A stretch of DNA of 50,942 nucleotides from assembly GCA_004298075.1 (NCBI GenBank), contig SCRK01000054.1:1-50942 (forward strand), given 5' to 3'. Shown here in pieces: positions 3,001 through 50,942 of the stretch. The notes beneath the pieces were generated by a model. That model ran no database searches, was not told where the DNA came from, and saw only the letters and a program-made list of their open reading frames with translations. Made by a program: the position numbers and the translations under genes. This DNA comes from a bacterium. Its GTDB lineage: Bacteria > Omnitrophota > Gorgyraeia > Gygaellales > Profunditerraquicolaceae. Each line of letters starts with the position of its first letter. Within the stretch, counting starts at the first letter, position 1.

Positions 3001-6000
3001 AACTAGAAACAATGGTTCAGTCTTTGTGGGCTAAGGGTAAATTTACCAGGGATGAGCGGCGCATGTTGGGGGCATGGCTTCTCGGGGACCTGAATTTTTT
3101 TGATTGCGATAAAGGTATCAATAGCAATACTGTTTCGTCCAGTCCGGTTAAGGCACCGCTTCAGATTTTGGATAGTTTTGTTCAAGCAATAAATATGGCA
3201 GAACAACGTTTGGTTGAGGTGCAGCTGCAGCTTTTGCAAAGGAAAGCCGCAGCAGAGTGTATTAAAATATTTAATGACCGCTTGATTGCCCCAGGGAAAA
3301 CTTTCATATTGGCAGAACTTCCTACGGGTGAGTTCTTAATGCAGTTAAGCGCCTTAAAATATGATATCGGCCTTTATCGAATCAGGCGCACTGGAGATTG
3401 GGTTGTTGTGAAAGGAAAGCCGTCAAGCAATAAAATTATGAAAAACTCAGCGCTTAAGACGCTTCTTGAACTTGGCCAAAGCGATATATCTTTGCTTAAT
3501 CACCCTTGCGGTCACACTTATCCTCTTCCTAATGAGATCTATAATGCTTTTTATCGCGGACATAGGTTTAATTATATCATTTCAAATAAAGGAATAAGGT
3601 TTTTTGACCTTAGCCAGATAAGAAATCCCGATACCAAGAAGTTTTTCCTGGAATTAATCCCGGAAGGCGAATTGAGCCATTTTTATTTTGATGTCCAAAA
3701 TTGCCCGGATTTAAAGTGGAACGAAGAATACAGATCATCTGACGCCTGTGTTCAATGGAATATTATTAATAATCTTATCCCATGGAGCAGCTTTAAAGCA
3801 AAAGATATAATTGATCATAAACAATCAGAGTGGATCCAATGGTTAAGCAGCAATAATCCATATGACCGAGTAAAAGCCATACGTTTTGCAAGTCATCTTA
3901 CACCAACAGAGTCAGTAGATGTTATTATTGGCTATTTTAGTGATCCCGAGGATATCGTACGTCTCCAGGCTATTATAGCGTTAGCGCAGATGGTTGAAAA
4001 AAATAGAGGAAACGAGCCTGCGCTGTGCGCCCTAAAACAATGTTTAGATAACGAAGCTGCCCTCCGGGGTTATCTATGTTTCAGAGATATTTACGGGCCA
4101 TACAAAGATTTTGCACAAAGAGGGCTGTTGACCAATCTCAAGCGCATATGCGCTTCGCCTTTACAAGCGATCGAATTTGATTTCCTATTTTTTTATTTCT
4201 CAATGAAAGCGCTTTCAATTACCGGGCCAGTAAGCTTGCCGCGGCGCGTATTAATTACCCCCGCGTTAAAAGCAAGCTCGGCAATAAAAGATAGGGTAGC
4301 CGGGATTTGCGCGCATATACCTTACCTAAGGCATGAAGGGATGCAGGGAGCAGGAGATCTGGCCGGGGTATTAAAGCTACTTGAGTATGCGGCGCTAAGC
4401 GGCCTGCGCATTGTCCAGCTTCTTCCGTTCACCATTTCAAGCTACGGCTATGGGCCTTATTCCGTTGAGGATGACCGCTTAAAAGAGCCGCTTTATATCA
4501 GTATAAATTGGCTGCTTAGATGGATCCCCTGCGAAAAGGCAGCCAGGTATCTCGATGAAAAGCGGGGGGATATCGAACAGGCAAATTCCCTGCAATTCGT
4601 GGATTTTGGCTTTTGCGAGAGAATAAAATTCCCGGCGCTTAGATATATTTGGGAAGAGTTTAACTCTAATCCTGTATATAAATGGTATCATCCGCTTAAG
4701 CTTTCCCAGGCCTCCTTCCATTTATGGCGAAAAATTAAAGACAATATTGACACGCGCCTTCTTTACAGGGTCTTAAAGCGTAAATTTAACTCCGAAATTG
4801 AGAATGGCTGGGATTGGCGGCTTTGGCCTGAAGAATTAAAATTACGTAAGAAGGCTGCCTTGAATGAGGCGAGGAAAGAGTACAGGGGGGAGATGGCATA
4901 TGAACTATTTTGCCAATGGATATTCGCCAAACAATTCCGGGAAATAAGGCGTTTCGCCGGGAGCAATAACGTTAAACTTATGTGCGATGTGCCGTTTTCT
5001 CCGGAAGGCGCGGATGTGTGGATGTATCCCGAGGCCTTTGACCTTAAGCCGCCTGATTTTAAGCGTAAGCTTAGCTGTGGGGTGGCTTCCGACATGTTCA
5101 GCCGGAACGGGCAATACTGGCAATTCTATTATTATACCTGGGAAAAAATCAAGGCGATGTGGTTCTGGGCCGCGCGTTTTATCAGCCGCTGGCTTGAGGG
5201 AATAAAGATACTGCGTTTTGATCATAATTTAGGGGCGTATAGGACCTATGTGTATACAGAGATTGAGCTGACCTTAAAAAGGCTGGGGGTATGCGGCCAT
5301 ATTGAAAATGCCATGGAGGAGGGTTTCTTCCATCCCGGGAAGAGGGAGGCTATTGCCCGGGAGGCATATTTGAGCATTTTAAACAAAGCCTACGAGTCTG
5401 CCGCGCTTGCCGCATATCGCGATTATATTTTTGAAAGCGGCGGAAAATTACGAGAATCCGGCATGGTTTTTATCGCGCGCGAAGCTAAGAATGGCGCTCA
5501 TATGCAGGGTGGTTTATGGTTTAACCCCGGGGAGGTGACCGAACAAAAGATCTTTAACAAAAAACCGAATTGGGATTTCATACGCATATCCGATAATAAT
5601 GAACGGCGGGAGGATGAGATCTCTTCTCCCGACCTGGATCATTTTAGGTGTTATCTTTTCCCCGCTGATACCGCAAATTTACCCCGCCCTGATGACATAG
5701 TAAAATTCGGCTTCTTTATTCCCGGCCCGGGGAGAAAGCTTAACCTTTTGTTAAAATGGCTGGGTAAATTATTCGGCGCCACACTAGTGGTTGAAGCCTT
5801 GGGGTTACTTACGGATTGGATCAGTGAAGATCTGGAGAAAAGCGGGGTGATAAACTATGTCCCGGCTATCTATGGCTTGACCCCATGGGATACCGGGAAC
5901 AGGTACTATTTCCCTAATCATAAGAAAGAAGCTTTTGCCACTTTGGCTTTGCATGATTCTCCGACCCCTAAATCCACCTGGGAAGAATGGCGTAATATTG

Positions 6001-45000: not shown

Positions 45001-48000
45001 AACAAAAGTGGAATCTTAGTTATTTATATCAGTGGAAGTATACGAATCTTACAGGATTCAATATTATCGTGAAGTGGCTGAAAAGATATCTTTCGATAGA
45101 ATATTATTTTGGTGATCCGGATAGGTACAGAAATAATCGCGACGCATTCTTAGTTTGCCAAAGCTATGCTGAAATGGATAAGTTGAGAGATAGAATTATC
45201 GCATCTGGAGTTGTGGATTATTTTCTAGACAGGGGAGTGCATTGTAAATACAGGTATGTTTATATATATGAGCGCGTCAAAGAATTGCTTTTTTGTGGCC
45301 TCAGTGATGGAATGCGCAATGGCGACGAACAAGATGCCCCTGAAACGGTGATGGGTTTATCTAATAAACAGGGAATTTCAGCCGCCGCCTCGCCGCTGGT
45401 AGAATATCCATATTTGCGCGACCGTGTGGCAGTTGGAATAAGAAGGATCGCGCATAATGCGATATTTGGGCTAAAACTTGATCCCATTCTTGCATTTTTA
45501 AGCGACAAAAGGGATAAGGAAGATCAAGAACTGGTAAGAAGATTTAAATCTCTAAGAACGGATGTTATTAAAAATAGAAACGGAGAAAGAAAATGGATTG
45601 AGGAATTTGCTTATATTTACCAAGAAAGAATAAAGTTATTAAGTTTAAAGACCTACAAATTGAGGGAATTTGAATTTTCCCCCATTGAATTATTACGTAC
45701 AAGTTATGATTTTATCTGCTGCAATTCCCCAAAAGATATCTTAGATACCTATTATATAAAAGAGGCTTTTCAGGCATATCTCATGTATGTGTATAATGAA
45801 AGATTTGATTGGAAGGGACGTGGACATGTTAATGCGAATGCAATCGATTTAATTTCTATGCTAATAAACATATTTGATAATGCCGTAGAGGTGACCGGAT
45901 GGCGAAAAAGGGAAAGCATGGAAAAACATGTTGCTAAGTTTCTTGTCAGCGCTTACTGCGAAGATGATATGTTTGTTATTGAGATTCAAGATAAAGGAGG
46001 GGGCATACCTGAAATCAGCTTGGAACGTGGCAAATATGAGGATAAAGGCCTTCGTTATTCGAAAATCTTTGATTACGGGTTCTCAAGGGGTAAAAAAGGA
46101 AGCGGCATAGGTTTAGCAGAGGCATTTTTCGTCATCAGTGACCATAAGGGGACAATAGAGATAAAAAATAACCCTGGCGTAGGAGCTGTTTTTGCTATCA
46201 AGTTGCCATTGGTAGGGAGTGATTCACCCGAACGCGCCAGTGGAGCCTCGCCGCTGGAGCAGGATGCTATATCGGCTCTTAAATCAGAATTCCTCAAGGT
46301 ATATAATGTGATCAGCACGCAGGAAATATTGGATTACTTAGAGGAAGATGGTTCTCTTTTTATGCGCTATACAATGGCAGGAGTCTGTGGCAGGGTAGCT
46401 TTTTTCCATGAACGTGCAGAAATATGGTATCTCCATACAGTAATGGGGATCACGGCTCCGTATGTTTCGCAGATAAGTGGCAGAGAGTACCTTTATGCTC
46501 ATGCGTTCGCTATAGACAATGAATTTGACTTAATACAAAAAGAAGCATTTGAACAAGGGTGTCCAATATCCAAAGAGGCATTGGTATTAACCGCGCCTGA
46601 TGCGTTTATATTCCCCAATGATCCAGATGCAGTAGCAATGTTTAATTTGAGAAATTTCCTCATAGGCGCTTGGTGGGGATGCCTAAACAATATTCCTTCC
46701 GACATAGAGGCCGAAGCCGCACTTAATTTTTACCTTGCAGATGAACAAATGTTCACAGTTATAGACGATACGCAATCTGGGTTGCTCAGTAGGGATGAGA
46801 TAAAACAAGCAAGCCAGAAACTGCTGCGTCAAATCCGATTTTATAAAATAGAAATATCCAGGTTAGTTCAATATAGCAAAGAAGTGAAGTTAGGTAGGGT
46901 ATTCAGACTAATATCTCTTGCTATTATGAAAAACAATAAACATGAATTAAGAAAAATTCTACAAAGGCTGTCATTTGGTGGCTCATCTCTGATTGCATCT
47001 AAAGACAAAACTATCTACATGCAAACAGCTGATTGCAGATTATTGGATACCAACAAGGGCGCCTCGCCGCTGGCGCTTGAAAGCGGGGGTTATAAAGCAA
47101 TAAGAATCAATGGCAAGGATTATTATCCATTAATCAGTCCTAAAGGCGACCTTGAATTTAGGTTTGATATTTCGGCCATAATAAGAGAAGAGCTGTCATC
47201 CATTATAGATGATTTGCAGCAAGACATGATTAAGGAGGATACATCTTTAGATATATTTAAAGCTGGATATTGGCAGACGCGCTATCTCGAATTAGAAGAG
47301 CAAGAAATCCAGCTGATAGCCGATAAACTTAGGGAGCTTCTATTATGCGCAAACCGGATTTGCATAGCCGGAATTGAGACCCTTTCATCGTTAGCTAGGC
47401 ATAAATTTATCTTGGGTATGTTTTTGGGTAATCAGCATTGCGCTGAGCATTCGATTAAGCAGGTTAAGGCACGCCAATTATTTGAAATAATGCAGTCCAC
47501 AATGAAAAGGCTGGGTATTTCATATCCGGTATATGTCTTTGGGAGCGCGGCTAAATATGGCTTGAGAGAGGGGCATGATATAGATATCGCAATTCCGGAG
47601 GAGAGATTTTTTAGGGCGCCGACGATTAACAGATTGATTGAGAATTTAAGAATTGAGCTTTCCGGGTCTTCGTATTGGGGCCCAACCATTAAAGACAGGT
47701 TATCTTTAGCGGAGCTGACCGAGAAGAGGCCGGATTTCAATCCATTCCTACACGGTATTATTTATCGAATTTCATCCGATTCTATTACCCCGATACAGGA
47801 TTATAATGAGCTACATGAAACCATAAGAAATGATACGCATGGCGCTTCGCCCCTGGTGCGCCATAGCGTACAGGAAAAAGTTATAGGTCTAAAAGATTGG
47901 CACGGTTTTATTCCCGCATTAAAACAAGAGCTAAATAAACAAGATTACCGTAAGGATTACGTAGTTATTAGGGTTTTTAAGGCAAATAGGATCAAGGTTT

Positions 48001-50942
48001 TACTTAAGACGGGAACCGACCGCGACCAAACTTCACGTATATGGAATTATTGGGAAGACTTATTGCCATATTCACAAGAGAAAATTAATCCTGAAGAGGT
48101 GATATATGCTTATCAATTGGAATTAGATCGTGAGAAATGGGAAAAAATCTACAGCCCGCTGTCTTCCGGATATCTCGACATTTATACTTACATAGAAAAT
48201 CTACCAGTAACAGCAGCAATAAGTATTTATGAACCAGAAGGGCTCAGAAGATTTCCCGAAGTTGAGTATCAATTTGTTCGACAACCTAGTAACATTTTAT
48301 TAGGCGTTTTTATACTTGATTATAATGCGGTTTATATACGCGGCGCCTCGCCGCTGGTGGCGGATAGCAGTTCTATCATTGAGAAAAATGAATTCTCTCA
48401 GTTTGTCTGGAAAAAAGATACCTCTCGTATAATAGAGGAAGGGAAGTGGGATGAGGGTCGGATAGGTATATATCCCAGTAGAGAGATTATGCATTTGCAG
48501 TTATTTGAAGAAGCAACTGAGTTAAGGATGAGTTTGGCAGTAGTCAAAGGTAACGATAGCAAGTGGAAGGCAATATTGCTTTATGTTGAAGATATGGAAG
48601 GGGAGCAAATTGAAAGGCAATACGAGTATCTTTATAAAGATAATGAAGCCATGTCTTTTGCTACGCGTTTCTATGAGGAGCGCAGGGAACTACAAATGAG
48701 GGTGGATAAATGGTTTTACAGATATTTACGGAAAAACCGGCTTATAAGCGGAGAGTTGAAAAATGGCTTAAAATGGATAATTAGCCGTGGTTTTACTCCT
48801 CCCCTTTCTGCCGTGCCGGGTTTATTTGATAGGATCTGCGGTCAGTTTGCGGACAACCTCATGAATTATCTTGAGAATTTGCGTATTGACAAACCTTTGA
48901 TTTTCCAGAAAATTCCAATGCGTTTATTGAATTCCTATGCTGATAACCGCAATAGTTTAATTGAGCTTTTAGGCTTACTTTTCGGATACCCCGAAGAGTA
49001 TATCAGTAGATTCCCTAAGCTTTCTGCTATGGGAATTGCTTTTGATGCCCGGGATTCAGGGCTTGAATTGAGCCCATACCAGTTATTTAAGCAGTATTTT
49101 GAGGATTTGCTCAGCAAGTATATTAATAATCTGAACTATGACGAAGAAAGAAACCGTCTGGTAATTGACGTGCGATACCCAAAAGAAGGGAGTTTCTTGC
49201 TGGTTAAAAAGCCCATAACCGAGGGAATTAAGCATTATCCTCTGCCGGCGGGAAAGAGGGTCGCCATAGTTGAGATCAGTAAGAACGGCCATATGCCGTT
49301 TGCCGGTAACTTCATTAAGGCGCTGAGCGAAGAAAACACAATAAGAGTATTTACTCTCGGCTCAAGTAATCCGGGTAGTATTCTTGAAGGGTATGAACCG
49401 GATATTATTTTAGCGCCTTATTCCTTAAGTCTTTGCAAACAGATCGGGGATTATCTGTTCGGTAGAAAGGGAGAGCAAATCGTATTTTATTATCCGTCAT
49501 TAGAGTCATCTCCCGGTTTTAATCTTTGTTTCAGCTTCAATAAGCCTGTCGCTAGAAAAGCAGCCGAGGCAATAAAAACGCACAAAAGCCAGCAGTCGCG
49601 CAGGGATTATCAGGGGTTTACCCGTTATGCTATGCAGTTTTGGGCTAATCTAGCCCGCTATTACGGGTTTATCGGGAGGGGGCCAAGGTATGCTAATGCC
49701 TTTGCTATAGGACATATCTGTAACGGAATAATTATGTATCCCAATCTTAATAAACGCTATGCGTTTGTTTTCGGCGCAGAAGCGGTTGCGGATGGTTTTA
49801 TTCCCGTAAGGATAGAAAAAAATACTATTATCAGATATGGTTCTCCGCATGCCGACGATATGGAGATTTCCGGAGCAGGTGTCGTAATCGCAGTTACCAA
49901 AACAGGCAAGAGGATATCAAATATAGTGTATAGCAGCGGAGGGGACAAGAGAAGGAGGAAGGAATTGAGCGACGCAACCAGGATATTGTCTCCTCAAAAC
50001 AGGATAAAAAATAAAATTTTGAGCCTTGAAAAAGAAGCGGAAGAATCGGCTTTTCAAAAACTCTACGAAAACGAGAAAAATTTCCTGGAAAGCAGGATCC
50101 GCTCTATACGCGGACAATCGAGGGGAATAATTATTTTTATGCCTCACAGAAACGACAGCCACCGTACGCACAGGAAATTTACTTCGTTATTGGAGCGGGT
50201 TTGGACTAATTTGTCTGAGGAATATGGCTTAGATGTCATCGTCGCCTATTATTTTGCCCCTTCAGCCGGAAATTTCAATACTTATTTTCTTTCTCCGCAC
50301 AATATAGACGCAAACAAGCGAGATAATGGAAAAATAAGCAGAGAGATAAATTTAACAGAACCTTTCAAGCGGGCAACAGCCATAACCGCTCCCGCGCGCT
50401 GCGGTCAGTCCGGCAAAGGCAGTCCAGATTGGATGCACTTGCCTTTTGGAGAAGCATTTTATCGGGAATCTTATTACGATGGCAAGTGCGCCTCGCCGCT
50501 GGCGCAAAGGGACAGGTGCCTGGTTGGCTTTGCAGGCGGTGTAGCTTCGGCTTTGCAGACGGCGCAGGGATCGCAAGACAGGCTTGAGGGTTTTTTCCCG
50601 AAGACATTTAAAAAATTAAACACGGCATTTAATGGTGTGCATGAATTACCGCGTTCAGATAGCTCGTTGAGAGAAGCATTGCTCCGGATAAAAAATTGGG
50701 AAAAAGTTAATTTGTTTACAGCATTGAGCTGGTGGTTTTGGATGGGGCTCGCCTCCGTTTATCCTAAGATCGGGATAAATATGCCTGTTGCGATAATTTG
50801 CACGTTCGGTTTCTGTGTATTTGGGAGCTTTTCGTTGTCTAACCGTTATTCTCGATTAAGAATTCAACGTTTACTTGGGAAAAAACAAAATAGGAAGAAT
50901 TCTGGTTCACCTGTTGTTTTGCCGCAGGGCGCCTCGCCGCTG
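3..50942 (+). CDS. Internal fragment of a giant multi-module ORF (16,980 codons in window; both ends lie outside the window)
   Basis: Manual translation in the phase starting at nt 3 met no TAA/TAG/TGA in any stretch I translated; I checked 3-9960, 14100-15500, 18120-19750 and 29580-30400 most closely. Every recognisable catalytic motif and all ~55 ASPL-type motifs start at positions divisible by 3. The ORF track lists no + ORF in this phase (all listed + ORFs are in the other two phases), as expected if a single ORF runs off both edges. Confidence 0.9.
345..371 (+). other. Walker A / P-loop (GMGGSGKST) in the 5'-most module (nt 3-3149)
   Basis: ggc atg gga ggt tca ggc aag agc aca = GxxxxGK[ST]. 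A possible Walker B, NIVIYIGD, lies about 110 aa downstream. The rest of the module is unrecognised. Confidence 0.5.
3138..3149 (+). repeat. ASPL-type punctuation motif (SSPV)
   Basis: tcc agt ccg gtt, in phase; context VSSSPVKA. Confidence 0.7.
3840..4085 (+). other. HEAT/ARM-like helical repeats (weak)
   Basis: NNPYDRVKAIRFASHL...DPEDIVRLQAIIALAQM...EAALRGYLCF resembles HEAT-like repeat spacing; no strong signature. Confidence 0.25.
4314..6255 (+). other. GH77 4-alpha-glucanotransferase (amylomaltase/MalQ-like) module
   Basis: Blocks GMQGAGDLAGVLKLLEYAALSGLRIVQLLPF, WDWRLWPEEL, NVKLMCDVPFSPEGADVWMYPEAF, ILRFDHNLGAYRTY, LVVEALG, LHDSPT and C-terminal NNPDPKSSHPNWRARMP match the conserved amylomaltase blocks in order. 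Confidence 0.85.
6597..6608 (+). repeat. ASPL-type motif variant (SSPQ) ending a Ser-rich linker after GH77
   Basis: agt tcc cct caa, in phase; context LASSPQSD. Confidence 0.45.
7370..8520 (+). other. GH13-like (alpha-amylase family) catalytic module
   Basis: GFDGARVDLAHNL at 7746-7784 (region II, nucleophile Asp), FFILETY (region III Glu), LVLVIANYDERS (region IV Asp), in the canonical order. Confidence 0.6.
8913..8993 (+). other. Predicted transmembrane helix
   Basis: VILVTAILGSILLFGPLPALTGLCLAV, an uninterrupted hydrophobic stretch followed by basic residues. Confidence 0.6.
9357..9368 (+). repeat. ASPL-type punctuation motif (SSPL)
   Basis: tcc agt cct tta; context SAASSPLATV. Confidence 0.85.
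9942..9953 (+). repeat. ASPL-type punctuation motif (ASPL)
   Basis: gct tcg ccg ctg; context RFSASPLEGG. Confidence 0.85.
10203..10214 (+). repeat. ASPL-type punctuation motif (SSPL)
   Basis: tcc tcc ccg ctt; context FDTSSPLSAK. Confidence 0.85.
10380..10960 (+). other. Sigma-70 family module #1 (regions 2 and 4)
   Basis: Region 2: DDLMQIATFG...GLARAVELFDPDNGGLFSAYAKMWIKSALSQGL. Region 4: ISARDKDILISH...IGKRHKISNERVRQILDRTTQQLKEM. Confidence 0.85.
10975..11870 (+). repeat. Six tandem Fis-type (HTH_8-like) helix-turn-helix units
   Basis: Units such as EKEWLMPALASCGGNISEAARKLVIAEQCLRKKL, ILHALDEADYSVPRAAALLSMSTDTLYQNISDLGVDL, ITAALEAAGYDISKAARMLVVNLNTLRWRIKSHKID and ITEALIFCGNRVSLVSRFLKISKDILYDRIKIYGID, plus two more divergent units upstream. 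Confidence 0.7.
12027..12038 (+). repeat. ASPL-type punctuation motif (ASPV)
   Basis: gct tcg ccc gta; context GCSASPVTLI. Confidence 0.85.
12660..12671 (+). repeat. ASPL-type punctuation motif (SSPL)
   Basis: tct tcc ccg ctt; context PIGSSPLASA. Confidence 0.85.
12780..12791 (+). repeat. ASPL-type punctuation motif (ASPV)
   Basis: gct tcg ccg gta; context LVCASPVVSP. Confidence 0.85.
12828..12926 (+). other. Internal signal-peptide-like leader (n-h-c regions, A-S-A end)
   Basis: RTRALFRSIWSANAPPLIIAAILSVFLSAPASA|NYS begins 12 codons after the ASPV motif at 12780. Confidence 0.55.
13128..13345 (+). other. TPR repeats
   Basis: GRLPEAKEVFLKILGMEKRIAPVHYSLGIIELALNNPEETRRYAETAIKLEPGHPLGYELLGYAYIAL. 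Confidence 0.6.
13611..13622 (+). repeat. ASPL-type punctuation motif (SSPI)
   Basis: tcc tcg cct att; context RSGSSPISVG. Confidence 0.8.
13764..13775 (+). repeat. ASPL-type punctuation motif (ASPL)
   Basis: gct tcg ccg ttg; context VVCASPLAYG. Confidence 0.85.
14211..14222 (+). repeat. ASPL-type motif variant (GSPL)
   Basis: gga tcc ccc ctg; context VRAGSPLGNT. Confidence 0.5.
15480..15491 (+). repeat. ASPL-type punctuation motif (ASPL)
   Basis: gct tct ccg ttg; context LSTASPLITG. Confidence 0.85.
15549..16125 (+). other. HAD-superfamily hydrolase module
   Basis: Motif I MIIFDMGKTL (Asp codon at 15561), motif II LVVATNT, motif III GKPHP, motif IV VVGDRWDIDI. Confidence 0.75.
16179..16190 (+). 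repeat. ASPL-type punctuation motif (SSPV)
   Basis: tct tct ccc gta; context VSCSSPVGFG. Confidence 0.85.
16260..17000 (+). other. Alpha/beta-hydrolase-like module (tentative)
   Basis: Nucleophile-elbow-like HLAESLGC (A-E-S-L-G at 16560-16574) after VIFTHGRG. Module size and layout are compatible with the fold. Confidence 0.45.
17136..17147 (+). repeat. ASPL-type punctuation motif (SSPL)
   Basis: tcc tcg ccg ctg; context VVSSSPLVEF. Confidence 0.85.
17259..17270 (+). repeat. ASPL-type motif variant (SSPA)
   Basis: tct tct ccc gcg; context IFSSSPARKT. Confidence 0.5.
17300..17620 (+). other. RelA/SpoT-type (p)ppGpp synthetase-like nucleotidyltransferase domain
   Basis: KKVDDIMGLRIISADMY...KKGYEATHINF matches the D-x-x-G-x-R-I-I and G-Y-x-x-x-H signatures of the RelA_SpoT synthetase domain. 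Confidence 0.7.
17829..17930 (+). other. TGS-like segment (weak)
   Basis: NKIFVMYLGQKKEGMSMQVVSLPKKSRPEDLFSI resembles the TGS beta-grasp (IFVFTPKG..I.LP.GST..DFAY). Confidence 0.3.
18111..18122 (+). repeat. ASPL-type punctuation motif (ASPL)
   Basis: gct tct cca ttg; context KPSASPLLME. Confidence 0.85.
19734..19745 (+). repeat. ASPL-type punctuation motif (SSPV)
   Basis: agt tct cct gtt; context PSSSSPVAKV. Confidence 0.85.
20040..20230 (+). other. ACT-like segment (weak)
   Basis: YVLEFDLPNRPGSRINLANFFELNKISVSQ...VHFIFELEIP resembles the ACT fold signature (D-R-P-G...). Confidence 0.3.
20440..20830 (+). other. HD-domain (p)ppGpp hydrolase (SpoT-type) module
   Basis: YIMHPIGVAEIAV (His codon at 20457), AGLLHDVIEDAG (HD at 20589-20594), LLIKIADRIHNLSTI. 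Confidence 0.85.
21213..21224 (+). repeat. ASPL-type punctuation motif (SSPV)
   Basis: agt tct ccg gtt; context GRTSSPVNRL. Confidence 0.85.
21660..21671 (+). repeat. ASPL-type punctuation motif (SSPL)
   Basis: tct tct ccg ttg; context ANGSSPLGAC. Confidence 0.85.
21879..21890 (+). repeat. ASPL-type punctuation motif (SSPL)
   Basis: tcc tct ccg ctc; context SNVSSPLKKS. Confidence 0.85.
21966..22305 (+). other. Polytopic membrane module (about 4 TM helices)
   Basis: LSTAVVIVFVVLVALFANAIFSLMI / YAIWFFTTVCILVISAVLFALVFPYLV / AFITGIIIGAAFGFLG / ALIWFSLTIIASGYLHW. Confidence 0.65.
22383..22394 (+). repeat. ASPL-type punctuation motif (SSPV)
   Basis: tcc tcc cca gta; context NKASSPVQKS. Confidence 0.85.
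23109..23120 (+). repeat. ASPL-type punctuation motif (SSPL)
   Basis: tcc tct ccg tta; context VFTSSPLNPG. Confidence 0.85.
23205..23555 (+). other. Polytopic membrane module (about 3 TM helices)
   Basis: ITLCLIVMVGIIIYLIYPLVSV / LFLAALITMAGALFSKWFF / IYSVFIILGAGIVAVFFNVV. Confidence 0.65.
23631..23642 (+). repeat. ASPL-type motif variant (SSPA)
   Basis: tca agc ccc gct; context NRSSSPAFVT. Confidence 0.5.
23745..24330 (+). other. Ser/Thr protein-kinase-like module (atypical)
   Basis: Hinge VTEYVEGKPLY and catalytic loop LLHADIKLENILI (H-x-D-x-K-x-x-N at 24126-24149). VKLIDPW stands in place of DFG, and VVARL where VAIK is expected. Confidence 0.65.
24483..24494 (+). repeat. ASPL-type punctuation motif (ASPL)
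   Basis: gcc tct ccg ctt; context SCCASPLSAE. Confidence 0.85.
24640..25420 (+). other. CheR-type SAM-dependent methyltransferase-like module
   Basis: FRIDVYSLGGSYGDEAYSIALVLYE (24888-24950) parallels the CheR block RIWSAGCSTGEEPYSLAM. Downstream VDVIFSLNVLPY parallels D.IFCRNVLIY. Confidence 0.6.
25491..25502 (+). repeat. ASPL-type punctuation motif (ASPL)
   Basis: gcc tca ccg cta; context RLSASPLRSG. Confidence 0.85.
25551..25612 (+). other. Hydrophobic leader/TM-like segment directly after a motif
   Basis: VWRLTNLVIVSSLLFLNPSYAS starts about 16 codons after ASPL at 25491. Confidence 0.45.
25857..25868 (+). repeat. ASPL-type punctuation motif (SSPI)
   Basis: tct agc ccg att; context GGSSSPIYAG. 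Confidence 0.8.
26160..26760 (+). other. Sigma-70 family module #2 (regions 2 and 4)
   Basis: GNAAARETLIMAYLPLVYGRVKRF...RDDLVQVGIYG...GFARAVELFEARIGWMGFSHYATRWIDAAM. Region 4: ISERDGDMLVSRLAEESLVSVGKRYGVSHTRVKQIVDQLKVRL. Confidence 0.85.
26829..26840 (+). repeat. ASPL-type punctuation motif (ASPL)
   Basis: gct tct ccc ctt; context LTAASPLGGP. Confidence 0.85.
26920..27560 (+). other. Possible class I SAM methyltransferase-like module (weak)
   Basis: TVAAGWAGTD (motif I-like), AIMINDF (acidic residue at the end of beta-2), LKWIKPGGFLIF. Confidence 0.3.
27666..27677 (+). repeat. ASPL-type punctuation motif (ASPL)
   Basis: gct tcg ccc ctg; context SFSASPLQSQ. Confidence 0.85.
28401..28412 (+). 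repeat. ASPL-type punctuation motif (SSPL)
   Basis: tct tct ccg cta; context RGVSSPLSDR. Confidence 0.85.
28593..28604 (+). repeat. ASPL-type punctuation motif (SSPI)
   Basis: tca tcc ccg ata; context RNSSSPIYSY. Confidence 0.8.
29100..29515 (+). other. Histidine-kinase-type ATPase (HATPase_c / GHKL) module #1
   Basis: N box IIINAMEAS, G1 IKDNGSGI, F box FEPLFTTK, G2 GSLGVGLSIAKEI, then TTVIVTLP. Confidence 0.85.
29523..29534 (+). repeat. ASPL-type punctuation motif (ASPL)
   Basis: gcc tcg ccg cta; context EFSASPLEAE. Confidence 0.85.
29586..30390 (+). repeat. Five tandem ~37-aa W/G-rich repeats (homing-endonuclease-associated-repeat-like)
   Basis: Codon-by-codon translation gives DPRNYKEWQRAGYGPLVRRSSEILGGWHNVVNKLGF / RNTWNYRQWEKSGYSRMVRRASEIFGGWENVLKEI / RNPMDRRTWIRIGHFEMAKLALSLFGCWDNLLKEV / DPRNSKEWERAGYWQMLHYTRKLLGGWINAVKAAGY / DPRNSQVWMDKGYSQPVHRLIATYGSWANALNKFGY. 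Confidence 0.6.
30520..30830 (+). other. Sigma-70 family module #3 (region 2 only; no region 4 seen)
   Basis: GNEAAREALIVIVGLRIVKSVAWSF...VDDLVQAGIYG...GFARAAEIFDPNREGGCKFTSFARIWAKWAIIGEL. Confidence 0.75.
30981..30992 (+). repeat. ASPL-type punctuation motif (SSPL)
   Basis: tct tcc ccg ctg; context VISSSPLGLP. Confidence 0.85.
31113..31199 (+). other. Internal signal-peptide-like leader #2 (A-S-A end)
   Basis: LLRAPPPALALVFMLFSNLPALASLPASA|YSY; a paralogue of the leader at 12828-12926. Confidence 0.5.
31390..31745 (+). other. TPR repeats
   Basis: AAEDFFKKGDFDEAVDSYLSVLMKEPDLPYISFRIAQAF ... YLLRADILLRLSRLEKDKSQLLEAKDNLEKALQLNPA. Confidence 0.6.
31812..31823 (+). repeat. ASPL-type punctuation motif (SSPL)
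   Basis: agc tcg ccg ctc; context LPGSSPLKNE. Confidence 0.85.
31880..32900 (+). other. Guanidino-group-modifying enzyme fold (amidinotransferase / arginine- or agmatine-deiminase-like)
   Basis: FYFEGGDVLPAGENIFVGEKVIARN (EGGD block), YFHLNTSVTFLP, and C-terminal NGYWRCSMNIGG (candidate catalytic Cys). Confidence 0.55.
33015..33026 (+). repeat. ASPL-type punctuation motif (ASPL; exact GCCTCGCCGCTG)
   Basis: gcc tcg ccg ctg; context QHSASPLASS. Confidence 0.9.
33678..33689 (+). repeat. ASPL-type punctuation motif (ASPL; exact GCCTCGCCGCTG)
   Basis: gcc tcg ccg ctg; context DRQSASPLGSY. Confidence 0.9.
34630..35060 (+). other. Nudix hydrolase module
   Basis: Perfect Nudix box GHLAVGENAQESLAREMEEEIGV (G-x5-E-x7-R-E-U-x-E-E-x-G-U) at 34749-34817. 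Confidence 0.8.
35244..35255 (+). repeat. ASPL-type motif variant (GSPL)
   Basis: ggc tcg ccg ctg; context YIAGSPLRQE. Confidence 0.6.
35781..35792 (+). repeat. ASPL-type punctuation motif (SSPL)
   Basis: tcc tct ccg ctg; context EGASSPLAQS. Confidence 0.85.
35976..35987 (+). repeat. ASPL-type punctuation motif (SSPL)
   Basis: tct tcg ccg ttg; context GTASSPLARR. Confidence 0.85.
36270..36530 (+). other. GNAT acetyltransferase-like module (tentative)
   Basis: LGIYVHPRYRNLRNGKLLIYNLDEIL (motif A-like) and DHQSYSYFKEKYGA (motif B-like). Confidence 0.4.
36690..36701 (+). repeat. ASPL-type punctuation motif (SSPL)
   Basis: tct tcg ccc ctc; context EYSSSPLTPQ. Confidence 0.85.
37206..37217 (+). 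repeat. ASPL-type punctuation motif (ASPL)
   Basis: gct tcg ccg ctg; context ESGASPLEDA. Confidence 0.85.
38079..38090 (+). repeat. ASPL-type punctuation motif (SSPL)
   Basis: tcc tca ccg ctg; context DSGSSPLTLN. Confidence 0.85.
38390..38620 (+). other. GHKL-ATPase-like segment #3 (divergent)
   Basis: GLRNVVQHCRNGIAVVL ... AAAIIDNGSGFQNE (G1-like) ... KSMGMDLSLM (G2-like). Confidence 0.35.
38847..38858 (+). repeat. ASPL-type punctuation motif (SSPL)
   Basis: tct tcc ccc ctt; context FGVSSPLSFK. Confidence 0.85.
38961..39197 (+). other. Polytopic membrane module (about 3 TM helices)
   Basis: GLSLGFLFPALAQAFF / MLVVTIIEALLCRQLF / FLGFGIGVFLAGMYTGFPITLSLLSFLISLYYMF. Confidence 0.6.
39216..39227 (+). 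repeat. ASPL-type motif variant (RSPL)
   Basis: cgt tcg ccg cta; context EKIRSPLIRA. Confidence 0.5.
40002..40013 (+). repeat. ASPL-type punctuation motif (ASPL)
   Basis: gcc tct ccc ctg; context HPAASPLAHR. Confidence 0.85.
40310..40500 (+). other. Transglutaminase/papain-like Cys-His-Asp candidate (tentative)
   Basis: DPDGYCDFTSAFLAKLL (G-x-C-x-x-x-[AS]-x-F), His about 36 aa later in HYEDHMFI, then NLYIDL. Confidence 0.3.
41067..41078 (+). repeat. ASPL-type punctuation motif (SSPL)
   Basis: tcc tcg ccg ctg; context ARNSSPLVNI. Confidence 0.85.
41190..42030 (+). other. Radical SAM enzyme module with C-terminal Cys-rich (SPASM/twitch-like) region
   Basis: IHPTSICNNRCIGCIG (C-x3-C-x2-C at 41217-41240), FSGLTGEPL (GGEPL-like), and SCNLPKSCLNCVACQ...YPCSH at 41931-42020. 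Confidence 0.8.
42207..42218 (+). repeat. ASPL-type punctuation motif (ASPL; exact 12-mer, extended GCCTCGCCGCTGGCGCAA)
   Basis: gcc tcg ccg ctg gcg caa; context NIAASPLAQG. Confidence 0.9.
42336..42347 (+). repeat. ASPL-type punctuation motif (ASPL; exact 12-mer, extended GCCTCGCCGCTGGCGCAA)
   Basis: gcc tcg ccg ctg gcg caa; context GISASPLAQE. Confidence 0.9.
42378..43390 (+). other. NAD(P)-dependent epimerase/dehydratase (extended SDR) module
   Basis: ITITGHTGDIGATLL (G-x-x-G-x-x-G at 42396-42416) and YDISK (Y-x-x-x-K at 42921-42935). Confidence 0.7.
43560..44540 (+). other. 3-dehydroquinate-synthase-like sugar-phosphate cyclase module
   Basis: [85 protein letters not shown] and HGEAVGIDIL match DHQS-family blocks. 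Confidence 0.85.
44616..44627 (+). repeat. ASPL-type punctuation motif (ASPL; exact 12-mer)
   Basis: gcc tcg ccg ctg; context SRSASPLAEI. Confidence 0.9.
44706..44774 (+). other. Pol-beta-type nucleotidyltransferase signature (tentative)
   Basis: GSSRYLSTGSRFVPLDYISDVDV (G-S ... D-x-D). Confidence 0.4.
45387..45398 (+). repeat. ASPL-type punctuation motif (ASPL; exact 12-mer)
   Basis: gcc tcg ccg ctg; context SAAASPLVEY. Confidence 0.9.
45850..46215 (+). other. Histidine-kinase-type ATPase (HATPase_c / GHKL) module #2
   Basis: N box LINIFDNAVEV, G1 IQDKGGGIPE, G2 KKGSGIGLAEAF, then GAVFAIKLP. Confidence 0.8.
46245..46256 (+). repeat. ASPL-type punctuation motif (ASPL; exact 12-mer)
   Basis: gcc tcg ccg ctg; context ASGASPLEQD. 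Confidence 0.9.
46380..46545 (+). other. Second Cys-His-Asp candidate (weak)
   Basis: MAGVCGRVAFFHE, His about 38 aa later in LYAHAFAIDNEFDL; same spacing pattern as 40310-40500. Confidence 0.2.
47061..47072 (+). repeat. ASPL-type punctuation motif (ASPL; exact 12-mer)
   Basis: gcc tcg ccg ctg gcg c; context NKGASPLALE. Confidence 0.9.
47470..47620 (+). other. Pol-beta-type nucleotidyltransferase core
   Basis: VYVFGSAAKYGLREGHDIDIAIPE (hG[GS]-x9-D-x-D). Confidence 0.6.
47844..47855 (+). repeat. ASPL-type punctuation motif (ASPL)
   Basis: gct tcg ccc ctg; context THGASPLVRH. Confidence 0.85.
48345..48356 (+). repeat. ASPL-type punctuation motif (ASPL; exact 12-mer)
   Basis: gcc tcg ccg ctg; context IRGASPLVAD. 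Confidence 0.9.
50490..50501 (+). repeat. ASPL-type punctuation motif (ASPL; exact 12-mer, extended GCCTCGCCGCTGGCGCAA)
   Basis: gcc tcg ccg ctg gcg caa; context GKCASPLAQR. Confidence 0.9.
50712..50850 (+). other. Two predicted TM helices
   Basis: LFTALSWWFWMGLASVY ... MPVAIICTFGFCVFGSFSL. Confidence 0.55.
50931..50942 (+). repeat. ASPL-type punctuation motif (ASPL; exact 12-mer) forming the last four codons of the window
   Basis: gcc tcg ccg ctg; context PQGASPL. Confidence 0.9.

Follow-up and report, generated by a model that had tools for sequence, protein, structure and literature searches.

How can a bacterial reading frame run through one unrelated protein after another without a stop codon, and what marks the point at which one protein gives way to the next? 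The question is raised by 50,942 nucleotides of DNA from a bacterium of the phylum Omnitrophota (GenBank assembly GCA_004298075.1, contig SCRK01000054.1, positions 1 to 50,942), referred to here in their full length as the window. Frame 3 of the + strand is free of stop codons from nt 3 to 50942 (16,980 codons) and open at both ends, and the longest stop-free stretch in any other frame is at most 284 codons. Since frame 3 carries no stop across the whole window, the window is an internal fragment of one giant open reading frame (ORF). The GC skew is positive along the entire window, with a GC content of 0.37-0.48. Along this ORF recurs the tetrapeptide [AS]SP[LVI], which is almost certainly a short in-frame junction joining complete, mostly unrelated proteins.

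A recurrent in-frame junction

The strict pattern [AS]SP[LVI] occurs 50 times between nt 3138 and 50942, every copy in the coding frame, with a mean spacing of ~975 nt. The composition of the ORF predicts 1.79 copies, and 2000 residue shuffles gave a mean of 1.78 and a maximum of 9, an excess of 28-fold. ASPL (n = 24, 0.39 expected) and SSPL (n = 16, 0.41 expected) are the commonest tetrapeptides of the ORF, and 50 of its 102 Ser-Pro dipeptides lie inside the motif. The preceding residue is S, G, A, C or T in 46 of the 50 copies. Nine near variants are one residue off the pattern: GSPL (twice), GSPI, GSPV, RSPL, SSPA (twice), SSPQ and ASPS. A first-pass annotation, made from the letters alone, had reported 49 strict copies and six near variants (GSPL, RSPL, SSPA, SSPQ); it was right that all lie in the coding phase, and both counts were too low, GSPI, GSPV and ASPS being among the variants found here. 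Its estimates of about two copies by chance and of a spacing near 0.9 kb agree with the present values, as does its remark that a small residue usually precedes the motif, and the comparison with shuffled controls that it had proposed came out clearly in its favor.

At the nucleotide level, the canonical 12-mer GCCTCGCCGCTG (GCC TCG CCG CTG, within a full canonical element AGC GCC TCG CCG CTG G) is found with up to two mismatches at 25 places on the + strand, without exception in the coding frame, and at two on the - strand. An independent repeat finder returned the junction as the dominant direct-repeat family in the window, with a core of ~15 nt, GCGCCTCGCCGCTGG. Beyond ~15 nt or 5 aa of the junction the flanks are unrelated, and the few likenesses (e.g. 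ETVS..IGT.G) are marginal. Chance, compositional bias or an assembly artefact has next to no probability as the source of the pattern. The window is a metagenomic contig, and nothing else speaks for such an origin; the excess over shuffles, the locking of the motif to one frame and one strand, and the same architecture in independent assemblies of relatives speak against it.

The strict copies are given below by position, strand, junction number, preceding residue and motif, 12-mer, and distance from the canonical 12-mer.

3138..3149, +, junction 1, S-SSPV, TCCAGTCCGGTT, 6 nt
4152..4163, +, junction 2, C-ASPL, GCTTCGCCTTTA, 4 nt
9357..9368, +, junction 3, A-SSPL, TCCAGTCCTTTA, 7 nt
9942..9953, +, junction 4, S-ASPL, GCTTCGCCGCTG, 1 nt
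10203..10214, +, junction 5, T-SSPL, TCCTCCCCGCTT, 3 nt
12027..12038, +, junction 6, S-ASPV, GCTTCGCCCGTA, 4 nt
12660..12671, +, junction 7, G-SSPL, TCTTCCCCGCTT, 4 nt
12780..12791, +, junction 8, C-ASPV, GCTTCGCCGGTA, 3 nt
13611..13622, +, junction 9, G-SSPI, TCCTCGCCTATT, 4 nt
13764..13775, +, junction 10, C-ASPL, GCTTCGCCGTTG, 2 nt
15480..15491, +, junction 11, T-ASPL, GCTTCTCCGTTG, 3 nt
16179..16190, +, junction 12, C-SSPV, TCTTCTCCCGTA, 6 nt
17136..17147, +, junction 13, S-SSPL, TCCTCGCCGCTG, 1 nt
18111..18122, +, junction 14, S-ASPL, GCTTCTCCATTG, 4 nt
19734..19745, +, junction 15, S-SSPV, AGTTCTCCTGTT, 7 nt
21213..21224, +, junction 16, T-SSPV, AGTTCTCCGGTT, 6 nt
21660..21671, +, junction 17, G-SSPL, TCTTCTCCGTTG, 4 nt
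21879..21890, +, junction 18, V-SSPL, TCCTCTCCGCTC, 3 nt
22383..22394, +, junction 19, A-SSPV, TCCTCCCCAGTA, 5 nt
23109..23120, +, junction 20, T-SSPL, TCCTCTCCGTTA, 4 nt
24483..24494, +, junction 21, C-ASPL, GCCTCTCCGCTT, 2 nt
25491..25502, +, junction 22, S-ASPL, GCCTCACCGCTA, 2 nt
25857..25868, +, junction 23, S-SSPI, TCTAGCCCGATT, 7 nt
26829..26840, +, junction 24, A-ASPL, GCTTCTCCCCTT, 4 nt
27666..27677, +, junction 25, S-ASPL, GCTTCGCCCCTG, 2 nt
28401..28412, +, junction 26, V-SSPL, TCTTCTCCGCTA, 4 nt
28593..28604, +, junction 27, S-SSPI, TCATCCCCGATA, 5 nt
29523..29534, +, junction 28, S-ASPL, GCCTCGCCGCTA, 1 nt
30981..30992, +, junction 29, S-SSPL, TCTTCCCCGCTG, 3 nt
31812..31823, +, junction 30, G-SSPL, AGCTCGCCGCTC, 3 nt
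33015..33026, +, junction 31, S-ASPL, GCCTCGCCGCTG, canonical
33678..33689, +, junction 32, S-ASPL, GCCTCGCCGCTG, canonical
35781..35792, +, junction 33, A-SSPL, TCCTCTCCGCTG, 2 nt
35976..35987, +, junction 34, A-SSPL, TCTTCGCCGTTG, 3 nt
36690..36701, +, junction 35, S-SSPL, TCTTCGCCCCTC, 4 nt
37206..37217, +, junction 36, G-ASPL, GCTTCGCCGCTG, 1 nt
38079..38090, +, junction 37, G-SSPL, TCCTCACCGCTG, 2 nt
38847..38858, +, junction 38, V-SSPL, TCTTCCCCCCTT, 5 nt
40002..40013, +, junction 39, A-ASPL, GCCTCTCCCCTG, 2 nt
41067..41078, +, junction 40, N-SSPL, TCCTCGCCGCTG, 1 nt
42207..42218, +, junction 41, A-ASPL, GCCTCGCCGCTG, canonical
42336..42347, +, junction 42, S-ASPL, GCCTCGCCGCTG, canonical
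44616..44627, +, junction 43, S-ASPL, GCCTCGCCGCTG, canonical
45387..45398, +, junction 44, A-ASPL, GCCTCGCCGCTG, canonical
46245..46256, +, junction 45, G-ASPL, GCCTCGCCGCTG, canonical
47061..47072, +, junction 46, G-ASPL, GCCTCGCCGCTG, canonical
47844..47855, +, junction 47, G-ASPL, GCTTCGCCCCTG, 2 nt
48345..48356, +, junction 48, G-ASPL, GCCTCGCCGCTG, canonical
50490..50501, +, junction 49, C-ASPL, GCCTCGCCGCTG, canonical
50931..50942, +, junction 50, G-ASPL, GCCTCGCCGCTG, canonical, the final 12 bases of the window

The near variants lie at the following positions.

6597..6608, +, SSPQ
10095..10106, +, GSPI
14211..14222, +, GSPL
17259..17270, +, SSPA
23631..23642, +, SSPA
35244..35255, +, GSPL, GGCTCGCCGCTG, 2 nt from canonical
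39216..39227, +, RSPL
42369..42380, +, ASPS, one residue ahead of the start of the epimerase profile match
50904..50915, +, GSPV

The window ends exactly on the last base of a canonical junction (50931-50942), for which the chance is ~50 in 50,942; its 5' end is not at a junction. The junction at the 3' end could be a branch point of the assembly graph, with strains differing in the next module, or a cut made by a pipeline.

Junctions at the edges of complete proteins

Scans with Pfam and NCBIfam identify ~20 distinct families along the ORF, none dominant by copy number and only sigma-70 (three copies) and HATPase (two copies) repeated. The sugar and carbohydrate enzymes are a GH77 4-alpha-glucanotransferase, an NAD-epimerase, a 3-dehydroquinate synthase (DHQS) and PIG-L. 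Regulators comprise three sigma-70-like regions, a Fis-type HTH, a Ser/Thr kinase domain, CheR and two histidine-kinase ATPase domains, while the nucleotide-related and other enzymes are HAD, RelA/SpoT, HD, NUDIX, radical SAM and a Pol-beta nucleotidyltransferase. HEAT and TPR repeats are also present, and the window scans gave no tRNA, tmRNA or Rfam matches.

The junctions avoid these families. Pfam/NCBIfam domain stretches, 20 in number, make up 21.5% of the residues, and not one of the 50 junctions overlaps them (10.9 expected, permutation P ~1e-4); 17 of the 19 consecutive domain pairs have at least one junction in between. The modules thus delimited are 40-1735 aa long, with a median of ~270. 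Paralogy among them is confined to the three sigma-like and two kinase modules; the others are unrelated, and duplication of a module along with its junction is therefore not the source of the repeats. The modules to which a fold or family can be assigned are listed by position, strand and content.

4164..9356, +, long module of 1731 aa with the GH77 4-alpha-glucanotransferase at its N-terminal end; MalQ profile position 23 lies at aa 1415, 27 aa past junction 2
10215..12026, +, sigma-70-like and Fis-type HTH module, by profile matches
15492..16178, +, HAD hydrolase module of 229 aa (aa 5164-5392); TIGR02253 positions 2-195 of 221 match aa 5181-5370
19746..21212, +, HD/SpoT-like module, by profile matches
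23121..24482, +, membrane-anchored Ser/Thr kinase-like module
25869..26828, +, sigma-70 (ECF-like) module, by profile matches
26841..27665, +, module m24, methyltransferase-fold, one complete globular domain in an AlphaFold2 (AF2) model
28605..29522, +, histidine-kinase module; several full-length kinase profiles end at aa 9836-9837, 4 aa ahead of junction 28
29535..30980, +, third sigma-70-like module, paralogous to the other two
33690..35780, +, NUDIX-containing module, by profile match
41079..42206, +, radical SAM/SPASM module, the only module in common with L002/P0006
42348..44615, +, NAD-epimerase and 3-dehydroquinate synthase module with no junction between the two, by profile matches
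45399..46244, +, second histidine-kinase module; kinase profiles end at aa 15402, 13 aa ahead of junction 45
48357..50489, +, PIG-L-containing module, 72% identical to a module of L006 ORF2

Each junction is only a few residues away from the point where an ordinary protein or domain naturally begins or ends. In addition to the profile ends listed, a dTDP-glucose dehydratase model begins (position 2) at aa 14128, one residue past the ASPS variant, and the DHQS model ends 13 aa ahead of junction 43. Module m24 provides a structural example. Its AF2 model (279 aa, 14 homologues) reaches a pLDDT of 91.4 and a pTM of 0.90, with secondary structure from residue 4 to 272, and has a class I SAM-methyltransferase-like fold with Foldseek matches to NNMT/PNMT (TM ~0.42); no Pfam family matches it at E <= 0.01. 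It is the module type most often common to other Omnitrophota giant ORFs and is also found as a stand-alone secreted protein. The stand-alone homologues have N-terminal signal peptides, which the giant-ORF copies lack; the modules of giant ORFs correspond to mature proteins. The wide distribution of m24 had made it a suspect for a processing enzyme, an idea dropped when the model showed a class I methyltransferase fold. An AlphaFold prediction of the HAD module with its flanks, made with no alignment, was unusable (pLDDT 37).

These results bear out three proposals of the first-pass annotation, namely that the motif marks module boundaries, that four example domains (HAD, the second sigma factor, HATPase and radical SAM) fit between consecutive copies, and that the modules are complete ordinary proteins; for the last, homology break-points (below) add to the full-length profiles and the m24 model.

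Some modules deserve separate mention. Only the first ~700 aa (GH77) of the 1731-aa module after junction 2 (nt 4164-9356) are assigned. The epimerase and DHQS matches (42384-44579) leave only ~120 aa unassigned between them, and the pair may be a genuine bifunctional enzyme or have lost a junction. The three sigma-70-like modules (10215-12026, 25869-26828 and 29535-30980) are 37-40% identical pairwise, and similar modules recur in other Omnitrophota giant ORFs (P0027, P0028, P0032, P0077, P0085). Antisense ORFs of 163-276 aa inside the giant ORF, at 14144-14974(-), 40739-41431(-) and 8229-8720(-), are probably due to chance.

The junction as DNA

Codon usage in the motif departs from that of the ORF. 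TCG encodes 26 of the 50 motif serines against a background of 10%, CCG 36 of the 50 prolines (34%) and CTG 21 of the 40 leucines (18%). The invariant Ser is a TCN codon in 47 of 50 copies; elsewhere in the ORF, AGY makes up 33-40% of Ser codons. Past 41 kb, 11 of 13 copies read exactly GCC TCG CCG CTG, mostly with xGC before and G after, and TCG and CTG each stand at 11 of 11 in the 3' part, where the background share of such codons is 10-25%. Distance to the canonical 12-mer falls toward the 3' end and rises toward the 5' end (Spearman -0.64, p = 4e-7). GC3 is 0.33-0.38 at 42000-48000, where the junctions are canonical, versus 0.43-0.53 in the rest of the ORF, so that the 3' modules look compositionally distinct and were perhaps more recently acquired.

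The differences between copies follow a codon pattern. Compared with the canonical form, 85 changes fall at third codon positions, mostly from G/C to T/A, and 51 at first or second positions, nearly all of them G-to-T (Ala to Ser) or Leu/Val/Ile exchanges. The peptide is therefore under purifying selection. By a hand calculation, 15 of the 36 possible single-base changes keep the pattern, and after four neutral changes ~3% of copies would be recognizable. The density of junctions is nevertheless ~1 per 1.0 kb in the 5' part versus 1 per 0.77 kb in the 3' part, and the copies therefore look like descendants of one oligonucleotide decaying under peptide selection. The excess of TCG, the near-fixation of TCN, the identical 3' copies and the uniform oligonucleotides of relatives (below) indicate a nucleotide-level component, which is either common DNA ancestry or propagation of the junction.

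The first-pass annotation had correctly noted that copies in the 5' two-thirds use many synonymous codons and had concluded that selection acts on the peptide rather than on the DNA. Peptide selection is upheld by the third-position changes and the A/S and L/V/I exchanges. The exclusion of the DNA has to be given up in view of the TCG and TCN counts and of 3' copies that are identical over ~15 nt. A pause at rare codons was also considered and rejected: in other lineages the junction is made of their commonest codons, unlike the window junction with its rare ones.

Junctions in other Omnitrophota giant ORFs

Close homologues of the ORF are found only among proteins from Candidatus Omnitrophota/Omnitrophica metagenome-assembled genomes. 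A word-indexed protein search gave no matches for window aa 4260-8496 and only P0001 and one kinase for aa 13689-16115, and P0001 as query found only itself. A scan of a genome collection yielded one relative, and a scan of metagenomes nothing beyond two stand-alone radical-SAM genes (23% identity). More productive was an exhaustive HMMER search with window aa 8650-9844 as query, which returned many long proteins whose aligned part corresponds to exactly one module of the window; the looked-up matches that carry a source name are all from Omnitrophota. Recurrent junctions in these ORFs take the following forms, given as source, peptide and DNA.

P0018/L006 and P0019-P0022: ASPL/SSPL; AGC GCC TCG CCG CTG G, DNA read in L006 only
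P0006/L002/L005: S-S-S-P-[VIA] and A-A-S-P; TCC AGC TCR CCG G and GCC GCC TCG CCG
P0023/24/41/55: A-S-S-A-V; GCG TCT TCG GCG GTG G, read in L010 (P0023)
P0028/L007 and P0085/L011: R-x-S-A-S-G; CGY nnn AGC GCG AGC GGN
P0045/L008: D-R-A-M-L; GAC CGC GCG ATG CTG
P0095/L009: G-A-R-L-A; GGC GCG CGG CTG GCG
P0038: R-S-E-V-R; peptide only

The ASSAV junction DNA is one base from the ASPV form. Junctions in the relatives are spaced 37-950 aa apart, mostly 100-950. Wherever DNA was read (every lineage except RSEVR), codon use is far more uniform than the background, with variation confined to third positions. Junction serines in L007 and L011 are AGY in 50 of 52 cases versus a background of ~40%, and the two exceptions are in one copy without the upstream Arg. 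At each locus that was tested, copies of the junction oligonucleotide are confined to the giant ORF, where all lie on the coding strand in a single frame, and none was found in the neighboring ordinary genes (3-20 kb). Roughly half of the long HMMER matches have no obvious recurrent tetrapeptide; some lineages may therefore lack the feature or carry it in a more degenerate form. A scan of viral contigs for AGCGCCTCGCCGCTGG gave 118 stretches, and the 80 of the 118 that were listed were all single, on both strands and background-like, with no arrays.

The codons of these lineages bear on a purely peptide-level signal, in which protease or linker sites would arise independently at each fusion and the DNA would be irrelevant. 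The synonymous codon diversity of the 5' two-thirds fits such a signal. It is nonetheless very unlikely, as the Ser codon family is nearly fixed (TCN in the window, AGY in L007 and L011), 11 of the last 13 copies in the window are identical over 12-15 nt in spite of the low background share of their codons, and the junction oligonucleotide is uniform between copies in each other lineage with DNA read.

Alternatively, the GC-rich 12-16-mer could act in RNA, as a site for an endonuclease, for pairing with a small RNA or rRNA, or for internal initiation, and so divide the transcript into module units. Nucleotide uniformity and lineage specificity would be natural for recognition by base pairing, and several junctions contain an NTG codon (CTG, GTG, ATG). 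However, older copies vary freely at third positions (CTT, GTA, TTA etc.), and ten canonical copies with 25 nt on each side share no hairpin, with folding z-scores of ~0. With no Rfam match, no Shine-Dalgarno-like sequence, and cleaved segments that would be devoid of start and stop codons, an RNA-level signal is quite unlikely.

Three features of the relatives stand apart from the junction itself. The giant ORF of L002 contains a perfect 7-nt tandem repeat (L002:11189-11217; AGCACCG, 4.1 copies), and in another assembly (P0010/P0015) the ORF changes frame exactly at this repeat and is called as two genes, which could reflect phase-variable expression of distal modules or an assembly or sequencing error. 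In L006 (8692-8880), a single stop codon is all that separates P0018 (2869 aa) from the next ORF (1793 aa), which has the same frame; the 183-nt "intergenic" stretch is open in that frame, and the stop may be a site of readthrough or stem from a nonsense mutation or an error. Both complete RxSASG-type ORFs begin with a conserved leader of ~47 aa (L007:2995-3140, L011:3001-3145) that ends in the first junction (...sffntpg..SASG), so that the first "module" is a short N-terminal peptide.

Module turnover between relatives

Relatives differ by gain, loss and reordering of modules, and the break-points lie at junctions. The window and the last 4,614 aa of the P0006 ORF (from L002) have only the radical-SAM module in common (61% identity over 389 aa, the alignment stopping at junctions), and a BLAST comparison of the window with the whole 7,224-aa P0006 (E <= 1e-15) likewise found this module only. 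Window aa 16113-16836 are 72% identical to a module of L006 ORF2 that is junction-bounded in both and flanked by unrelated neighbors, the high-scoring segment pair (HSP) ending 6-7 aa from the window junctions. Of the 43 HSPs that link the window to other giant proteins, 37% begin and 56% end no more than 15 aa from a junction of the window; for random positions the figure is 9.8%.

A further case is that of L007 and L011, syntenic orthologues with the same three genes upstream and common modules that are ~50% identical. The first-pass annotation had proposed aligning orthologous giant ORFs to look for conservation of the motif; the junction positions of modules common to these two are conserved, and other lineages carry different peptides. 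The RxSASG junction type is therefore older than the split of L007 and L011. One of the two has ~730 aa (two modules) inserted between modules A and B, another module has been relocated, and the break-points of these rearrangements all lie at junctions. Propagation at the nucleotide level, with the junctions as rearrangement break-points, is probable.

A proposed model for spread and cleavage of the junction

The reading preferred here, to which an even chance is given, is that the junction oligonucleotide spreads with the addition or exchange of modules and that the peptide is kept, most plausibly as a polyprotein processing site. The oligonucleotide would be propagated whenever a module is inserted or exchanged, through recombination at the junction or through duplication of the target junction on insertion. 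Such propagation would keep every module in phase and could account for the uniform, "young" copies at the 3' side. The peptide would be an exposed site at which a trans-acting endopeptidase of lineage-specific specificity splits the polyprotein, and the likeliest position of the cut would be just past the aliphatic residue ([A/S]-S-P-[L/V/I], cut, small residue). Proteolytic cleavage at the motif, which is predicted, is put at somewhat less than an even chance.

Classic substrates of subtilisin and elastase are AAPF, AAPL and AAPV, which the window peptide A/S-S-P-L/V/I resembles when read as P4 to P1. The residue after the motif is L, F, Y, W, K or R in 7 of 49 cases versus 34% (p = 0.0017), a depletion of bacterial N-degron residues. 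S8 and C39 peptidase domains have been reported in Omnitrophota giant proteins, for which cleavage has been suspected at sites that are not known (10.1101/2023.11.21.568195). A cut after L/V/I is favored because of the likeness to these substrates, the S8 domains in such proteins and the depletion of N-degron residues. A gene for a 1340-aa Peptidase_S8 protein (subtilisin family; L009:3650-7672) lies 2.3 kb upstream of the complete GARLA-type ORF (L009:10001-21445).

Several observations weigh against this model. The S8 neighbor in L009 is a single case, with no peptidase in the flanks of the other loci, and no protease domain was detected by Pfam, NCBIfam or catalytic-signature regular expressions in the window fragment, the 7,224-aa relative or four complete related ORFs. 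The junction peptides of different lineages share no common signature, so that very different protease specificities must be assumed. On the side of recombination, the junction has no dyad symmetry or conserved flanks and spans only ~15 nt, which is short for known site-specific recombinases, and no recombinase gene was seen next to the loci. A dedicated insertion mechanism also fits poorly with fusions that have no motif (epimerase-DHQS and sigma-HTH). Selection alone could also place break-points between modules, and the uniform 3' copies could reflect gene conversion instead of recent insertion. Finally, neither a junction nor a confident Pfam domain is seen in the first 1045 aa of the window (nt 3-3137).

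The main rival is an uncleaved connector, which is possible and deserves a tentative place. The giant protein would remain intact, as beads on a string that are partly membrane-anchored, and the motif would be a benign hinge left by the joining of modules and kept small, flexible and stop-free. Consistent with a connector, no protease domain was found in the window or in complete relatives, the published view is one of single membrane-associated polypeptides (10.64898/2026.06.07.730766), and the junction residues are small or polar (A, S, G, P, R) with flanks slightly more polar than average. In contrast, a generic hinge needs no invariant Ser-Pro followed by an aliphatic residue, nor does it need to be uniform within a genome yet variable between lineages (ASPL, DRAML, GARLA, RSEVR). 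The strength of purifying selection is a further difficulty, with ~3% survival expected and the 5' density nearly kept, and it is hard to see how sigma factors and oligomeric enzymes could work while tethered in a protein of more than 17,000 aa.

A modification or docking site is a weaker alternative, as is the RNA-level signal. The kinase module could phosphorylate Ser-Pro at the boundaries (in the RRSASG lineage, R-R-x-S), or the boundaries could be glycosylated or bound by a chaperone or scaffold. In favor are an invariant Ser in several lineages (ASPL, SSSPV, ASSAV, RRSASG) and the presence of a Ser/Thr kinase-like module in the ORF, but the DRAML and GARLA junctions have no hydroxyl residue and nothing ties modification to protein termini. 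Such a site is unlikely.

Other candidates for processing were dropped: signal peptidase I on account of the Pro after small residues, lipoprotein processing in view of the missing lipobox, and 2A-like skipping for want of a long conserved upstream peptide. An HExxH motif in one module of a relative was considered as a protease candidate and has no counterpart in the window.

Comparison with known modular systems

Viral polyproteins are cut by proteases such as picornavirus 3C, potyvirus NIa and alphavirus nsP2. They resemble the window in that complete proteins are concatenated stop-free in one frame, with a short consensus at each boundary and small residues around the site, and in that the consensus is uniform within a genome and different between lineages. 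This match of within-genome uniformity and between-lineage divergence is in line with recognition by an endopeptidase, the most plausible role of the peptide. In contrast to the viral systems, the window belongs to a cellular DNA genome and has more than 50 modules, including housekeeping-type enzymes and sigma factors, cleavage is predicted, and no protease was identified in the window fragment or the relatives, apart from the one S8 gene near the giant ORF of L009. Viral sites are also alike as peptides, not as identical oligonucleotides.

Integrons carry attC sites, imperfect palindromes of ~60-140 nt, and an intI integrase with attI, while CRISPR arrays consist of 23-47 nt repeats and uniform spacers of ~30-40 nt and are non-coding. 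Like these arrays, the window has direct repeats between unrelated inserts, repeats that are uniform at one end and degenerate at the other, and inserts that turn over. Unlike them, its repeats are 12-16 nt long, translated and phase-locked in one ORF, no attC-like structure, leader, or nearby integrase or cas genes are present, and the inserts are whole proteins without start or stop codons. An integron cassette array was therefore rejected (repeats of ~15 nt without a common hairpin, no integrase in the flanks of relatives), as was a CRISPR array (inserts of 0.1-5 kb, everything translated in one frame).

Also comparable are the junctions of polymorphic toxins (VENN in CdiA, PxxxxDPxGL in Rhs, the latter also a proteolytic site) and the sfx repeats of the R64 shufflon, short conserved in-frame sequences at which alternative protein modules are swapped. 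The break-points of module gain, loss and reordering coincide with the junctions here as well. Those systems differ in having one junction per gene, with only the C-terminal toxin or tip exchanged, whereas the window joins unrelated enzymes serially across more than 50 junctions; its modules are enzymes and regulators, and no toxin/immunity pairs are among the profile matches. NRPS/PKS megasynthases likewise have very long ORFs and modules joined by short linkers. However, their modules are paralogous and form one assembly line with linkers that are not identical oligonucleotides, whereas the modules of the window are unrelated and stand-alone.

Giant ORFs are a known trait of Omnitrophota (PMC10066038; 10.1101/2023.11.21.568195), and a "multi-enzyme metabolic cluster" giant class has been defined by Nielsen & Lui 2026 (10.64898/2026.06.07.730766). 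The window ORF belongs to this class, with an Omnitrophota host, an ORF of at least 10,000 aa and many Pfam families. Consistent with other members, many families tile one polypeptide whose sequence is almost unique, and the repertoire is the same (HATPase, HAD, HD, NUDIX, radical SAM, methyltransferase, HEAT). The earlier papers (10.64898/2026.06.07.730766; 10.1101/2023.11.21.568195) differ from the present case in describing no recurrent junction motif; the words motif, linker, cleav and polyprotein do not occur in the 2026 text (10.64898/2026.06.07.730766), and West-Roberts et al. stated in their 2023 study that cleavage points were not known, which prevented splitting the giants for analysis (10.1101/2023.11.21.568195). 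In the searchable literature, no junction motif, polyprotein processing site or gene-fusion mechanism is described for Omnitrophota giant ORFs. The statement in the first-pass annotation that no such system was known is thus fair for the junction, while the host class had already been described. The host structure is known; the junction element, its DNA-level uniformity and its lineage-specific forms are additions of this analysis.

Implications for giant genes

Omnitrophota stand out by their giant genes of 10,000 to 147,000 codons, whose origin, status as single proteins and cut points are at issue. A lineage-specific junction provides a rule, computable from sequence, for cutting such ORFs into natural units. 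The rule aids annotation and structure prediction, as one junction-bounded module reached a pLDDT of 91, and it changes the reading of counts such as "147 transmembrane helices in one protein". The motif also makes the question of cleavage testable on existing metaproteomes.

In its boldest form, which is speculative, the model describes a cellular "polyprotein operon" of Omnitrophota in which dozens of ordinary proteins would form in-phase cassettes that a dedicated DNA mechanism adds, removes or swaps at a lineage-specific junction of ~15 nt, with the junction duplicated or regenerated on each occasion; a protease co-evolving with the junction peptide would recognize it and set the single proteins free. 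Uniform junction DNA and rearrangements bounded by junctions point to in-phase cassette exchange as a new way of gene building in bacteria. The junctions are a first handle on how giant genes assemble and on where their products may be cut.

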